Below, piece by piece: positions 5,431-61,675 of a stretch of DNA of 64,000 bases (its first letter is position 1; each line of letters begins with the position of its first letter). The stretch is from contig OZ024745.1 of assembly GCA_964016885.1 (NCBI GenBank), positions 73,222,001-73,286,000 on the forward strand. Direction: 5' to 3'. The notes under the pieces are model-generated. The model searched no databases and was not told the DNA's origin. It saw only the letters and a program-made list of their open reading frames with translations. The DNA comes from Eledone cirrhosa. Lineage: Eukaryota. The position numbers and the translations under genes were made by a program.

Positions 5431-5561
5431 TGGAAAGTTATATTTAAAATTGTTGGGTTACAACTAGTAAATATTTATAACTGATATAAAAGCACTCGAC
5501 AAATATTTGGAGTATATTTACAATATTAAATAAATGGAAACTATATTTATAAAACCATATT

Positions 5562-5627
5562 TATTTCATTATATATATTTCAGGGATATCATATTAACAA
5601 TATGCTATGCCTTCCTCAGACAAAATA
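5562..5627 (-). ncRNA. Type I hammerhead ribozyme (mirror copy of 5801-5866)
   Basis: Reverse complement of 5801-5866. Confidence 0.65.
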
Positions 5628-5800
5628 CAATATAAACAGTTTTATAGATAAATAGATTCGACATACCGTAACAACATCGACTTGCATTTGAAGAGGTTGA
5701 TTTGGCAGGTTGATTTGGACTGCCAAATCAACCTCTTCAAATGCAAGTCGATGTTGTTACGGTATGTCGAATCTATTTATCTATAAAACTGTTTATATTG

Positions 5801-5866
5801 TATTTTGTCTGAGGAAGGCATAGCATATTGTTAATATGATATCCCTGAAATATATATAATGAAATA
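5801..5866 (+). ncRNA. Type I hammerhead ribozyme
   Basis: Stem I TATTTTGT/ATGAAATA, core CTGAGGA (5809-5815), long stem II AGG..CATATT-GTT-AATATG..CCT, GAAA (5847-5850), palindromic TATATA, then TA. Confidence 0.65.
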
Positions 5867-5909
5867 AATATGGTTTTATAAATATAGTTTCCATTTATTT
5901 AATATTGTA

Positions 5910-56403: not shown

Positions 56404-56650
56404 ATATAGATGAGATTCTACAGGACTAGAACTGTTTCATTCATTAGAAATCATCAGGAATCTGATGGGATTAGAAATCATCAGGGATTAGAAATCATCA
56501 TTAGAAATCATCAGGGATTCCTGATGATTTCTAATGAATGAAACAGTTCTAGTCCTGTAGAATCTCATCTATATTAAAACTGTTATACTCTGCTATGTAT
56601 TGAGTACCTTACTTACTGTGGTTACCTCCGATTCAACCCGGAATAACGTA
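56404..56650. mobile_element. ORF-less palindromic Penelope-like cassette with a reiterated spacer
   Basis: 59-bp inverted arms 56404-56462 and 56516-56574, tail 56575-56650. Confidence 0.75.
56514..56557 (+). ncRNA. Minimal hammerhead (mirror copy on minus at about 56421-56462)
   Basis: GGATTC-CTGATGA-T TTC taat GAA T-GAAA-CAGT-TC-TAGTCC. Confidence 0.65.
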
Positions 56651-57060
56651 CATATGTATATATATATATATATATGTATATATATATATATACGTATATA
56701 TATATATATATGTATATATATATATATATATATATATATATATATGTATATATATGTATATGTATATATATGTATATATATGTATATGTATATATATGTA
56801 TATATATGTATATATATGTATATGTATATATATGTATATATATGTATATGTATATATATGTATATGTATATATATGTATATATATGTATATGTATATATA
56901 TGTATATATATGTATATATATGTATATATATGTATATATATATATGTATATATATATATATGTATATATATGTATATATGTATATATATGTATATATATA
57001 TATGTATATATATATATATGTATATATATGTATATATATATATGTATATATATGTATATA

Positions 57061-59050
57061 TAACTTTGAATAACTTTGAAATGTTTTGGCCAGTATTGGC
57101 CCAGGCCATGTCTAACTTAATAGCACCACCTGGCGAAGTCTTTCAATTCAGGATTTGGGCACCATGGCCCATTCGAGAAGAGAATTACTGTTTGCGGAGA
57201 CATATCCGGGTGTGGGTGGTTTGTCCGGGATTACTTGGAGGAATTTGTCCAAAGACTTCTTGAATCTTGTGTGGTCAGTTTCTGTTTTGACGTGTCCTGG
57301 TGTGATGTTGAAGAGAGCAGGGCCGATTGAGGTGAAATAATTGTGCCGTATTGTTGTTATGAGTTGCGATTTAGATTTTTGAATGGGACGGATAGCACGG
57401 GGCCCAAGCCTTGGGTGTATCTTGAAGGCGATGCCAACATCATTTGGGCAGTGATGATGGAACATTTTCCACATCATGCAGATAATATAACGCTCACGGC
57501 GACGTTGGAGTGAGTAAAGTTTCAGGTTTTCCAATCGACCCCAGTAGTCAAGGTCTGACATGCCATCTATCTTTTTCGTGATTGCCCTTTGAGGAGCTTC
57601 AAGTTTCATGATACTTTGTTTCGTGTGGGGAGACCACAGTGGACAACAGTATTCAAGGTGTGGTCGGGCGAAAGTAGAGAAGAGAAGGATAATGGTGCGG
57701 GAATCTCTCGACTGGAAGGTTCTGAGGATCCAGGAACACATTCTGCGGGCCATGTCAACTTTGCTGCTTATATGCGTGGTCCAGCTTATGTTGCTGTCCA
57801 CGGTTACTCCCAAGTCTCTGATGTTGTTAGATGCCACGAGAGTTTCCCCGGAGGGAAGGGAGTACGGGAGTTTCAGAGCATCCTCTTTTCCAAAGTGGAT
57901 CAGTTCGAATTTGTCTTCGTTCAGTAACATGTTGTTCTTTTCTGCCCATTGGGTAACAGCCAGTAGGTCTGACTGAAGGCTTATCCGGTCATCCACGCCA
58001 TTGATGACCTTTTGGAGCTTGGAATCATCAGCGAAAATTTTAATGTTGCTGTGTTTGATGATGTCAGTGATGTCATTAATATAGATGATGAAGAGAAGTG
58101 GGCCCAACACAGTGCCTTGTGGGACTCCACTACTGACTTTGGCTGGGCTTGATTTGACTCCCTCAACTACAACATGTTGGGTTCTGTTTGACAGGAAGCT
58201 CTTGATCCACTGCAGCAGCTTTCCAGTGACACCAATATTGGACAGCTTTCTCAGTAGAATGTTATGATCAACCCTGTCAAAGGCCTTGCTGAAATCAAGG
58301 TAGATAACATCAGTGTTGGAACCCTCTCCCAAGGCTCTCAAAATGTCATCAAAGTGATGCAGTAGTTGCGTCAGGCAATCCCTTCCATTACGGAATCCAT
58401 GCTGGTTGGAGTTCAGCATATTGTTACTCTCAAGGAAGTGGGTCATTCGCGATCTCACCACTCGCTCAAATACCTTAATGATATGAGAGGTGAGTGAGAT
58501 TGGACGGTAATTCACGGCAAGGGATTTGTTTCCCTTTTTGAAAACTGGGACAACAGACTGGGATAGAAGGTTTTCTGGCACATATCCAGCATCCAGTGAG
58601 TTCCGCCACAGATTGGCAAGAGGAGAAGCAAGTTGGTGTTGACACGCCTTCAAGACACAAGCAGGGAACCTATCGGGACCTACTGCTGAATTATGTTTGA
58701 TTTCCTTTATTGCCGCCAAGACATCAGGGGCGCCAAACGTTATGTCCGATAAGGTGTAATGGGGAGTAACATCGCCGATACAGCCCAGATCGGCCATATC
58801 AGGATTGCTGAAAACAGAGCAGTATTGTTTCTGCAGTATCTCACCCATGGTTTTAGCATTGTCTTGAAGAGTGCCATTTTCATCAATTAGAGGGCCAACA
58901 GTAGAGCCAGTGATTTTGTGTTTTTTTGCAAATGAAAAGAACACTTTGGGATTGAGTTTGATCTTCTCAATGGCCCAGGCCTCTTCAGCTCTTCTCTGAT
59001 TGTTGATGAGGGACATTATGTTGTTTTGGAGGTTATGTTTTTTAATCTCT
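57061..59050 (-). mobile_element. CR1-group LINE, 5'-truncated, young
   Basis: Uninterrupted RT ORF, short 3'UTR, (TTCAAAGTTA)2 tail. Confidence 0.93.
57148..59016 (-). CDS. LINE ORF2 reverse transcriptase (622 aa open; endonuclease lost by 5' truncation)
   Basis: [58 protein letters not shown]. Confidence 0.9.
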
Positions 59051-61218
59051 ATACATATATGTATATATATGTATATGTATATATATGTATATATATGTAT
59101 ATATATATATATGTATATATATATATATGTATATATATATATATATGTATATATATATATGTATATATATGTATATATATGTATATATATATATATATAT
59201 ATATGTATATATATGTATATATATGTATATATATATATGTATATATATGTATATATATATATGTATATATATGTATATATATATATGTATATATATATAT
59301 ATATGTATATATATATATATGTATATATGTATATATATATATATATATATATGTATATATGTATGTATATATGTATATATATATATATGTATATATGTAT
59401 ATATATATATATATATGTATATATGTATGTATATATATATATATATATATATGTATATATGTATATATATATATATATGTATATATGTATATATGTATAT
59501 ATATGTATATATGTATATATATATATATATATATATGTATATATATGTATATATGTATATATATGTATATATGTATATATGTATATATGTATATATATGT
59601 ATATATGTATATATGTATATATATATGTATATATGTATATATATATGTATATATGTATATATATATGTATATATGTATATATGTATATATATATGTATAT
59701 ATGTATATATGTATATATATATGTATATATGTATATATATATGTATATATGTATATATGTATGTATGTATATATATATGTATATATATGTTTATATATAT
59801 ATATGTATATATATGTTTATATATATATATGTATATATATGTTTATATATGTATATATATATATATGTATATATATGTATATATATATATATGTATATAT
59901 ATATGTATATATATGTATATATATATATATGTATATATGTATATATATGTATATATATGTATATATATATATATATGTATATATATATATATATGTATAT
60001 ATATGTATATATATATATATATGTATATATATATATATATGTATATATATGTATATATATATATATATGTATATATATGTATATATGTATATGTATATAT
60101 ATGTATATATATATATATGTATATATATATGTATATATATATATATGTATATATATATATATATATATATGTATATATATATGTATATATATGTATATAT
60201 ATATATATGTATATATGTATATATATATATGTATATATACACATATATATATATATATATGTATATATACATATATATATGTATATATATGTATATATAT
60301 ATGTATATATATATATATATATATATATGTATATATATGTATATATATATATATATATATGTATATATATGTATATATATATATGTATATATATGTATAT
60401 ATATATATGTATATATATGTATATATATATGTATATATATATATATGTATATATATATGTATATATATATATATGTATATATATGTGTATATATATGTAT
60501 ATATATATGTATATATATATGTGTATATATATGTGTATATATATGTGTATATATATATGTATATATATATGTGTATATATATATGTATATGTATATGTAT
60601 ATATATGTATATATATATGTGTATATATATATGTATATGTATATGTATATATATGTATATATATATGTGTATATGTATATGTATATATATGTATATATAT
60701 ATGTGTATATGTATATGTATATGTATATATATATGTATATATATATGTATATATATATCTATATCTATATGTATATATATATGTATGTATATATATATAT
60801 GTATATATATATGTGTATATATATATGTATATATATATGTATATATATATGTATATATATATATGTATATATATATATGTATATATATATATGTATGTAT
60901 ATATGTATATATATATGTATATATATATATATATGTATATATATATATGTATATATATATATATATGTATATATATATATATATATATGTATATATATAT
61001 GTATGTATATATGTATGTATATATATATGTATATATATATATATATATATATATATGTATGTATATATGTATGTATATATGTATGTATATATATATGTAT
61101 ATATATGTATATATATATATATATATATGTATATATATATGTATATATATATATATATATATATGTATATATATATGTATATATATATATATATATATAT
61201 ATATATATGTATATATAT
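59051..61218. repeat. 2.2-kb imperfect (TA)n microsatellite
   Basis: Direct reading. Confidence 0.98.
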
Positions 61219-61675
61219 AGAAAAAGAGATGAAATCGAAAATGCAACTGAAGTCTTATTTTTCTAAAAAATATATATATTTATTTGGTTCCTTTACCGGT
61301 TTCGCAGTTCTTCTGCTTTTCAAAAGGTGAGTTGAGATGGAGGGTCTGTGGGATGTGATAAAAACCATGTGGGATGTGAGAAAAACCATGTGAGAAAAAC
61401 CACAGACCCTCCATCTCAAGAGAAAAACCATGTGAGAAAACCATGTGGGATGTGAGAAAAACCATGTGAGAAAAACCACAGACCCTTCATCTCAACTCAC
61501 CTTTTGAAAAGCAGAAGAACTGCGAAACCGGTATAGGAACCAAATAAATATATATATTTTTTAGAAAAATAAGACTTCAGTTGCATTTTCGATTTCATCT
61601 ATTTTTCTTTATACTTTCACTCGTGTAGGACACCTCGGTTATTTTTCATTTTGTAAAAATAACCTCACTTTCTAA
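61219..61675. mobile_element. ORF-less palindromic Penelope-like cassette with a reiterated spacer
   Basis: 133-bp inverted arms 61219-61351 and 61476-61608, tail 61609-61675. Confidence 0.75.
61500..61537 (+). ncRNA. Variant-core hammerhead-like motif (mirror copy on minus at 61290-61327)
   Basis: CCTT-TTGAAAA-GCAG aagaa CTGC-GAAA-CCGG-TA-(T/A)AGG. Confidence 0.6.

Follow-up and report, generated by a model that had tools for sequence, protein, structure and literature searches.

Two-armed hammerhead insertions in TA arrays of Eledone cirrhosa: a mixture of Penelope-like ends and retrozyme-like units, probably copied twice from one RNA

A window of 64,000 nucleotides (nt) of Eledone cirrhosa DNA (contig OZ024745.1, positions 73,222,001 to 73,286,000, forward strand) contains six cassettes, numbered 1 to 6 in order of position, which combine inverted arms and hammerhead ribozyme motifs and lie among (TA)n arrays. 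These cassettes are a mixture of known kinds of element and not a new system. Cassettes 1, 3, 5 and 6 are truncated 3' pseudo-long terminal repeat (pLTR) ends of protein-coding Penelope-like elements (PLEs); cassettes 2 and 4 are fragments, about one unit long or less, of non-coding, retrozyme-like tandem hammerhead units. An earlier note on the window had put forward truncated PLEs and retrozyme-like elements as alternatives, and each is right for its part of the set. From the ends of these insertions and of their relatives in the genome we infer, with a probability of about 0.75, that two-armed TA insertions are made by a Penelope reverse transcriptase (RT)-endonuclease which nicks both target strands and copies one RNA twice.

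The same note had seen in the cassettes a candidate for an undescribed system, but the components are in print (papers are cited here for their accessible text): inverted pLTRs with a tail (PMC3846280), TA targeting by Hydra elements (PMC8557442) and by retrozymes, opposite-strand hammerhead pairs 100-700 bp apart (PMC4209133), and non-LTR retrozymes.

Results

Architecture of the six cassettes

TA-type microsatellite makes up 36% of the window, and the islands between the TA are retroelement debris. Self-BLAST of the window, with TA masked beforehand, recovers the near-perfect inverted arms claimed for all six cassettes (83.8-100% identity): 5527-5901 against itself (cassette 1, 97.9%), 15310-15388/15587-15665 (cassette 2, 100%), 19053-19426/20205-20579 (cassette 3, 99.2%), 36042-36085/36195-36238 (cassette 4, 100%), 56410-56568 against itself (cassette 5, 83.8%, its jumbled junction counted in) and 61221-61351/61476-61606 (cassette 6, 97.7%). 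The longest ATG frame per cassette is 26-61 amino acids (aa), i.e. at most 61 codons, as expected from the claim that they hold no open reading frame (ORF). In cassette 2 the ribozyme sits in the spacer, outside the arms.

Other claims hold in part. TA/AT accounts for at least 72% of 11 of the 12 flanks; the left flank of cassette 4 is not (TA)n (TA/AT fraction 0.44), its repeat unit continuing to 35902, where it abuts the (GAT)n end of an element resembling a long interspersed nuclear element (LINE). A one-sided unpaired tail is general, except that the right end of cassette 4 is at neither of the two fixed sites described below, so that its "tail" is simply the unpaired part of the longer arm. 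The cassettes are indeed unrelated as DNA, but the proteins of families 1, 3 and 5 form one clade (41-45% identity).

Cassettes 1, 3, 5 and 6 are ends of coding elements

Copy numbers were taken as exact 23-28-mer matches in the genome, for which reversed controls gave 0: 3,696 for cassette 1, 276 for cassette 3, 9,086 for cassette 5 and 7,950 for cassette 6. Genomic loci examined are designated by L and a number. The monomer of which cassette 1 forms the 3' end is 3.8 kb long, and in tandem copies the tail leads into an ORF of 737 aa (L031), which is intact and has RWR, DKT, YRDD and CxCX5C. A Pfam search of this Hydra-type protein returned 0 families; among its Atlas look-alikes at 0.96-0.99 some members carry GIY-YIG, RVT_1 or HTH_animal. 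Cassette 3 aligns to the 3' untranslated region (UTR) of a 5.1-kb monomer, and its family has a 915-codon stop-free frame in L184, 45% identical to the cassette 1 protein. The frame of the cassette 5 family is open for 493 codons up to the edge of L246, short of the endonuclease end (41-43% identical); among the first 30 matches of this cassette in genome order, two run into the ORF and several have long 3' UTRs.

RWR and DKT are present in families 1, 3 and 5, and CxCX5C in 1 and 3. In all three a single frame with RT and C-terminal GIY-YIG-type endonuclease, seen for family 5 as far as before the endonuclease end, is linked to the pLTR, and the pLTR hammerhead, tail, inverted copy and (TA)n target are those of Hydra-type elements. 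The cassette 6 family has a 590-codon RT-endonuclease (RT-EN) frame (L187, L189) with DKG, a CX4CX2C linker and, at its C terminus, a GIY-YIG-type endonuclease, about 27% identical to the Hydra-type proteins. By motifs only, cassettes 1, 3 and 5 would thus be Hydra-type and cassette 6 Neptune-type: cassette 6 and the pLTR end at 24354-24584 match the Neptune motif details (RT-EN frame, DKG, CX2-5CxxC-type linker). The linkage to an RT ORF, which the earlier note had proposed as a check, is therefore present for families 1, 3, 5 and 6, and absent for 2 and 4 in the sampled loci.

In the window, cassette 3 consists of a tail-bearing part on the minus strand (18951..20206, 3' UTR and pLTR; tail 18951-19052; hammerhead 19098-19142) and a tail-less arm on the plus strand (20205..20579; hammerhead 20489-20533).

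Cassettes 2 and 4 are fragments of retrozyme-like units

The exact-mer copy numbers of the non-coding families are 823 for cassette 2 and 11,072 for cassette 4 (reversed controls 0). The cassette 2 unit is 310 bp long and forms arrays of up to 18 units; that of cassette 4 is about 426 bp, in arrays of up to 5 units; each unit carries one hammerhead. The cassette 1 protein matches 0/30 and 0/20 of the top loci of cassettes 2 and 4 respectively, and in the sampled loci no colinear ORF is linked to these units apart from the fusions described below. Predicted circles of the 310-bp and 426-bp units are highly self-paired (z -4.9 and -7.1).

Cassette 2 is made of a site-B arm on the minus strand (15273..15388, unit positions 49-165, with a 37-nt tail at 15273-15309) and a site-A arm on the plus strand (15386..15668, unit positions 158-310 then 1-130), with a hammerhead at 15502-15544 (plus strand, predicted cut after 15538). 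The left arm of cassette 4 (35902..36085, minus strand) is cut on its left by the LINE-like 3' end, and its right arm (36087..36244, plus strand) holds a hammerhead at 36186-36228.

When a coding element with the same tail as the 310-bp unit was sought, a 320-bp sister family turned up instead, also retrozyme-like (L350, L338-L367), with 2,233 pattern matches and hammerheads mostly of U3-A8 type; both C3-G8 and U3-A8 cores occur among its relatives. At L462 a Hydra-type ORF encloses a 426-bp array, which apparently travelled with the ORF and was partly inverted together with it. At L233:1400-1478 DNA reads show tandem re-starts, in which they jump back by 74-78 nt, from site A to about -14; such short head-to-tail pLTR repeats are a possible birth route for retrozyme units.

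Two fixed ends and the relationship of the arms

In all families measured the 3' ends occupy two fixed sites, called A and B, where they directly abut TA; the stretch from A to B is the tail. The counts below come from genome-order samples except where an identity-picked sample is named. Among the first 25 arrays of the 310-bp unit, a single head-to-head inversion is present in 15, every one of which combines one A end with one B end (A+B). For the 426-bp unit (40 loci out of the first 41 listed sites) 20 inversions were found: 13 A+B, 0 A+A, 0 B+B and 7 with an eroded end. The 320-bp sister family, scored by eye, gave 12 A+B, 0 A+A, 0 B+B and 3 eroded among 15 inversions. Pooled, the intact retrozyme inversions are A+B in 40/40 cases.

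In families 1, 5 and 6 an inverted arm is present in 14/30, 16/30 and 19/30 tail-bearing loci respectively. It ends at or before site A, in most cases at one upstream site, and in none at the tail end. In 11 of these 49 loci the 5' end of the tail-less arm lies over 10 nt beyond that of the tail arm, so that neither contains the other; such arms cannot have been produced by copying the first arm. The arms of cassette 2 are likewise non-nested. Arms are joined head-to-head through short microhomology or re-copied scraps. Within one insertion they are about twice as alike as between insertions and have minority variants in common; at L194 a single minority base runs through about 18 units, in both arms.

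Raw reads from two reduced-representation DNA runs of another study contain opposite-strand joints in two families. That of the 310-bp family is at one position (about 100 reads in each run, one start) and that of family 5 is at +4 (8 and 12 reads, with 4 and 7 starts). For the families, though not for the six junctions of the window, these reads support the view that the fold-backs are genomic. Read ends and loose ends at AATT that coincide with site B are probably restriction cuts and were disregarded; a rise in depth at +1 in the same reads was set aside as confounded by related families and library bias.

Fold-back points and the putative transcription start

For families 1, 5 and 6 the 5' ends beyond the 285-nt reference (12, 4 and 4 respectively) were excluded from the test. 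A 5' end at -7..+12 of one site was found in 11/30, 16/30 and 18/30 loci, and this interval holds 17/32, 26/42 and 25/45 of the mapped 5' ends, for a uniform expectation of 1-2. Exactly at -30 there is a TATA box in 8 of the 9 copies of cassette 5 and 5 of the 8 copies of cassette 6 listed, the copies without it being truncated or rearranged upstream. The pile-up site reads CCAGAT in both family 5 (Hydra-type) and family 6 (Neptune-type); in family 1 it lies within TCACT, which is the initiator-like motif of rotifer pLTRs (PMC3846280). Since it is found 30 nt behind a TATA box or in TCACT, the pile-up site is likely the transcription start.

By contrast, the 5' ends of retrozyme arms are uniform round the unit (Rayleigh p 0.73 and 0.58), and the arms are 0.1-13 units long. 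The earlier note had made random fold-back points a mark of ordinary truncations; the outcome was the reverse, with non-random points in three coding families and a uniform spread in the non-coding families. The retrozyme template would then have no 5' end, being probably a circle, possibly a long multimer.

Cassettes 1, 5 and 6 would be start-to-tail products, the scraps at their junctions being re-copied start-proximal bases. In cassette 1 the tail-bearing arm (5433..5708, minus strand) spans the putative transcript from +2 to site B, with its tail at 5433-5518 and its hammerhead core at 5619; a 10-nt repeat of start-proximal sequence (5709..5718) separates it from the tail-less arm (5719..5909, plus strand), which runs from +1 to site A and has its hammerhead at 5801-5866. 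In cassette 5 the tail-less arm comes first (56408..56463, minus strand, +1 to site A, hammerhead core at 56457), followed by a junction of short re-copied bits of start-proximal sequence (56464..56515) and the tail-bearing arm (56516..56649, plus strand, +2 to site B, hammerhead 56514-56566, tail 56582-56649). Cassette 6 has the same order: tail-less arm (61219..61351, minus strand, U3-A8 hammerhead 61290-61327), junction in which roughly the first 14 bases of the putative transcript are begun anew several times (61352..61463, plus strand), and tail-bearing arm (61464..61676, plus strand, +3 to site B, tail 61614-61676) with a hammerhead bearing one stem I change (61500-61537, plus strand).

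Fusions of retrozyme and Hydra-type arms

In seven insertions (L196, L259, L331, L333, L417, L450 and L471) a retrozyme arm is, by eye, head-to-head with a Hydra-type arm with no TA between them, and the outer ends are at TA. Two of the library entries used in this search were derived from the fusion loci themselves. No retrozyme arm joined head-to-head without TA to a Neptune arm was found in the loci examined. A Hydra-clade enzyme as mover of the retrozymes is a lead that we judge somewhat better than even.

At L259:1440-2130 (G000:C1:497986) the Hydra arm reaches +8 and is followed, without TA, by short antisense fragments from near site A of the 310-bp unit and next by a sense unit that ends at site B. 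Other candidates were rejected: L040 has the same family on both sides, the joint of L077 lies within microsatellite, L364 has no TA flank, L379 is old (72% matches), and in L462 the array is nested in an ORF.

Hammerhead motifs

Hammerheads were sought with a purpose-made type I descriptor, which does not permit C3-A8 cores. The 41 non-microsatellite islands (40,629 nt) contain 8 cores, whereas 100 Markov shuffles gave 0.05 on average and never more than 1. The earlier note had given each cassette a type I hammerhead: five of the six pass the descriptor, and two islands absent from that note pass as well (24354-24584 and 55533-55767). Cassette 3 fails because each arm has one core substitution, different in the two arms; in Rfam the arms match Hammerhead_1 at 26.2 and 25.2 bits (E 8e-4 and 2e-3), and an intact copy of the family at 31.7 bits, below the gathering threshold of 34. 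In the Rfam search of 11 short stretches the only hammerhead matches were these two arms, the intact family copy and cassette 2, the last a weak HH9 match (E 0.48); cassette 4 had none. Over the whole window Rfam gave only microRNA-family noise from TA repeats among the 150 of 619 matches listed.

By eye, the hammerheads of cassettes 2 and 4, for which the Rfam match is weak or lacking, have a 6-bp helix I, a distal stem and an AAUA-type loop 2. The core of cassette 4 carries a C3>U change, which puts U3 opposite G8, while its family keeps C3-G8. Of 85 motif classes in the loci examined, 60 are C3-G8, 22 are U3-A8 and 3 are U3-G8. U3-A8 is a known compensatory core variant (PMC4209133), and the split between C3-G8 and U3-A8 suggests selection on the fold; self-cleavage is a prediction only.

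Discussion

A proposed twin-priming model

The proposed mechanism is twin priming: on a single RNA one target strand would prime at site B and the other at site A. The arms would be separate cDNAs, each growing toward the 5' end of the RNA, then joined head-to-head by microhomology. On a coding RNA the start sites would be only 60-280 nt behind the transcription start, and the commonest product would run off the 5' end; with start sites so close behind the promoter, the first pLTR of the transcript would give only a stump or a tiny palindrome. A retrozyme RNA would offer a template without a 5' end on which copying could stop anywhere, which would account for the range of arm lengths and the random break-off. 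Hammerheads would be passengers in the coding stumps; in retrozymes they would release monomers. Retrozymes would probably borrow a Hydra-clade enzyme. In vitro, one Penelope protein nicks and extends both strands and prefers AT-rich DNA; it begins copying at two internal positions of the RNA, which delimit the tail, and can do without the hammerhead (PMC11167929).

A more specific version, which we put forward tentatively, has a Penelope dimer working in a fixed A/B register, Hydra enzymes carrying retrozyme circles, and fusions arising from two RNAs at one break. Run-off on its own mRNA would litter the genome with start-to-tail palindromes, and a retrozyme circle would give opposite-facing arrays.

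Several observations weigh against twin priming of one RNA, or parts of it. In vitro the start site did not differ between top and bottom strand (PMC11167929), so strict A+B pairing is not predicted by that paper. The identity-picked sample of the 426-bp unit gave 1 A+A and 1 B+B beside 9 A+B, and the ends of the fusions (on our reading 3 A+A, 3 A+B, 1 B+B) are off the A+B rule; a deletion between two neighbouring palindromes would give a fusion-like shape. Of the single arms of the 426-bp unit, three adjoin LINE DNA with no TA present, and one is linked to a Neptune RT on its 3' side. The variants shared by the arms could be explained by palindrome conversion or a common source locus. As to the start site, cassette 1 has no TATA box there, and in family 3 the ends at -3..+12 of the hammerhead core are 0/39 (two loci at -8/-13), most copies extending over 500 nt upstream. 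A coding element with the sequence of the retrozyme units was not found in the sampled loci.

Alternative explanations

The second arm could instead come from self-priming or fold-back, of the first cDNA or of an antisense transcript, and not from a second priming at the target. Near-palindromic junctions are common, e.g. the GANTC centre in the cassette 5 family, and are taken as self-priming in PMC3846280; self-priming would also give variants common to both arms. It does not give the non-nested arms, nor a second arm ending at a fixed site flush with TA, and we hold it decidedly unlikely. The 5' pile-up might be a splice acceptor, or an RT stall at RNA structure, the remaining model being unchanged. 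In D. virilis Penelope the 5' end of hammerhead helix I marks the end of an intron (PMC4209133), the cassette 5 site coincides with helix I, after a pyrimidine run and AG, and a long pyrimidine run precedes the cassette 1 site. Yet, by eye, AG is retained in the copies and no common upstream exon appears at the junction, and cassette 6 has no pyrimidine run; the site is about 0, 36 and 82 nt before the hammerhead across three families, and TATA stands at -30 in two clades. This alternative therefore seems unlikely. Local tandem amplification of a stray pLTR, discussed in bioRxiv 10.64898/2026.07.22.740005, or movement by LINEs, of which similar elements abound in the same TA arrays, might have made the retrozyme arrays. 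However, these are dispersed and near-identical, each array holds one inversion, ends at the fixed A/B sites and is flanked by TA, they have no poly(A) or simple-repeat tail, and their break-off points are uniform, which makes such an origin very unlikely.

A new class of ORF-less ribozyme elements spreading as palindromes is highly improbable. The first 25 top matches of cassette 5 were all palindromes of 176-240 nt with one fold point, but this apparent fixed element was rejected as an artefact of a query that contained the junction bases: the unbiased sample has long 3' UTRs and copies in tandem with the ORF, the junction detail varies from copy to copy, and ORF linkage rules such a class out for cassettes 1, 3, 5 and 6. 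Fold-back chimeras are a known artefact of assembly or library preparation. That the palindromes are of this kind is barely credible given the point changes between arms, the family-fixed ends, the locus-specific junctions and the opposite-strand joints in independent raw reads, which concern family members and not these six junctions.

Relation to known systems

The Hydra clade of PMC8557442 shares with the families described here a single ORF of RT-GIY-YIG type, RW[K/R], DKT, CxCX5C, the pLTR hammerhead and (TA)n insertion, as well as 5' truncation, partial tandems, an inverted copy and a tail. It differs in tail length (62-100 nt here, 30-40 there) and in monomer length (3.8-5.1 kb here, "generally under 3 kb" there), and the accessible part of that account is silent on any clustering of 5' ends at a single site, as are those of PMC2377424 and PMC12910113. 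Neptune elements in PMC8557442 resemble cassette 6 and 24354-24584 in pLTR hammerhead and microsatellite bias, cassette 6 being placed there by motifs only.

With metazoan non-LTR retrozymes (PMC7229834, bioRxiv 10.64898/2026.07.22.740005) the non-coding families have in common short dispersed tandem units with one type I hammerhead each and highly self-paired predicted circles. Unlike them, the arrays here are inverted head-to-head, end at two fixed sites and lie between TA flanks; in the accessible texts the word "inverted" is absent from PMC7229834 and "tail" from bioRxiv 10.64898/2026.07.22.740005, and the 426-bp unit exceeds the 170-400 nt quoted. Penelope as retrozyme carrier is a published hypothesis, drawn from co-occurrence and pLTR homology, and 8/9 Xenopus dimers were without cleavage (bioRxiv 10.64898/2026.07.22.740005).

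PAc, the anole Poseidon enzyme studied in vitro (PMC11167929), agrees with our model in the extension of both strands, an AT-rich target, two tail-defining starts and a predicted dimer; inverted arms and run-off at the transcription start are not explained in what is accessible of that work. Rotifer Penelope elements (PMC3846280) likewise have an inverted pLTR, a tail, TATA and TCACT, within which the cassette 1 pile-up falls. Self-priming on an antisense template is favoured there, whereas the non-nested arms here point to two primings. Our searches of the openly accessible literature, supplements aside, did not turn up the A+B rule, the start-site pile-up or the fusions.

How PLEs come by their inverted ends and tails, and which enzyme moves animal retrozymes, are questions that the literature states as open (PMC8557442, PMC7229834). 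Thousands of young insertions are present in this genome, and their ends yield sharp predictions on mechanism: one arm per start site, run-off at the predicted transcription start, and endless copying on a circle. For the in vitro system already established, the intact Hydra-type ORF of 737 aa is available. For annotation, such palindromes resemble miniature inverted-repeat transposable elements or new ribozyme elements and are mostly pLTR stumps.

Other features of the window

Several PLE-derived features were absent from the earlier note. A single-arm Neptune-type pLTR end (24354..24584, plus strand) begins at its U3-A8 hammerhead, and a Hydra-type pLTR end (55533..55767, minus strand) has its core at 55627. 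A longer, 3.4-kb fold-back insertion of Hydra type (20732..24162, minus strand), with arms at 20810-21601 and 23368-24160 and a tail at 20732-20809, retains the RT end and the endonuclease (23370-22051); its pLTR has two short hairpins and no hammerhead by the type I descriptor. Tiny fold-backs of its family are very common in the loci examined. Different Hydra-type families (cassette 5, window 20732-20809 and L331) share a short motif in their tails, GTATTGAGTAC, which is a candidate protein-recognition site. A decayed Hydra-type endonuclease end lies at 53363-54208, and an additional short palindrome (85%) with no hammerhead match at 30810-30944.

The same TA arrays contain 5'-truncated LINE-like pieces of three or more families, several ending in (GAT)n: 150-733, 1321-2421, 12734-13849, 15771-16692, 39764-41843 and 45897-47618; 57065-59048 and 63025-64000; 36405-36935, 43245-43852 and 61906-62541. 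A second copy of cassette 6 is found 6.5 kb downstream (G000:C5:73290027), 100% identical with its LINE neighbours included, and 57065-58040 equals 63025-64000 as part of this duplication, which is either a recent tandem duplication or an assembly repeat.

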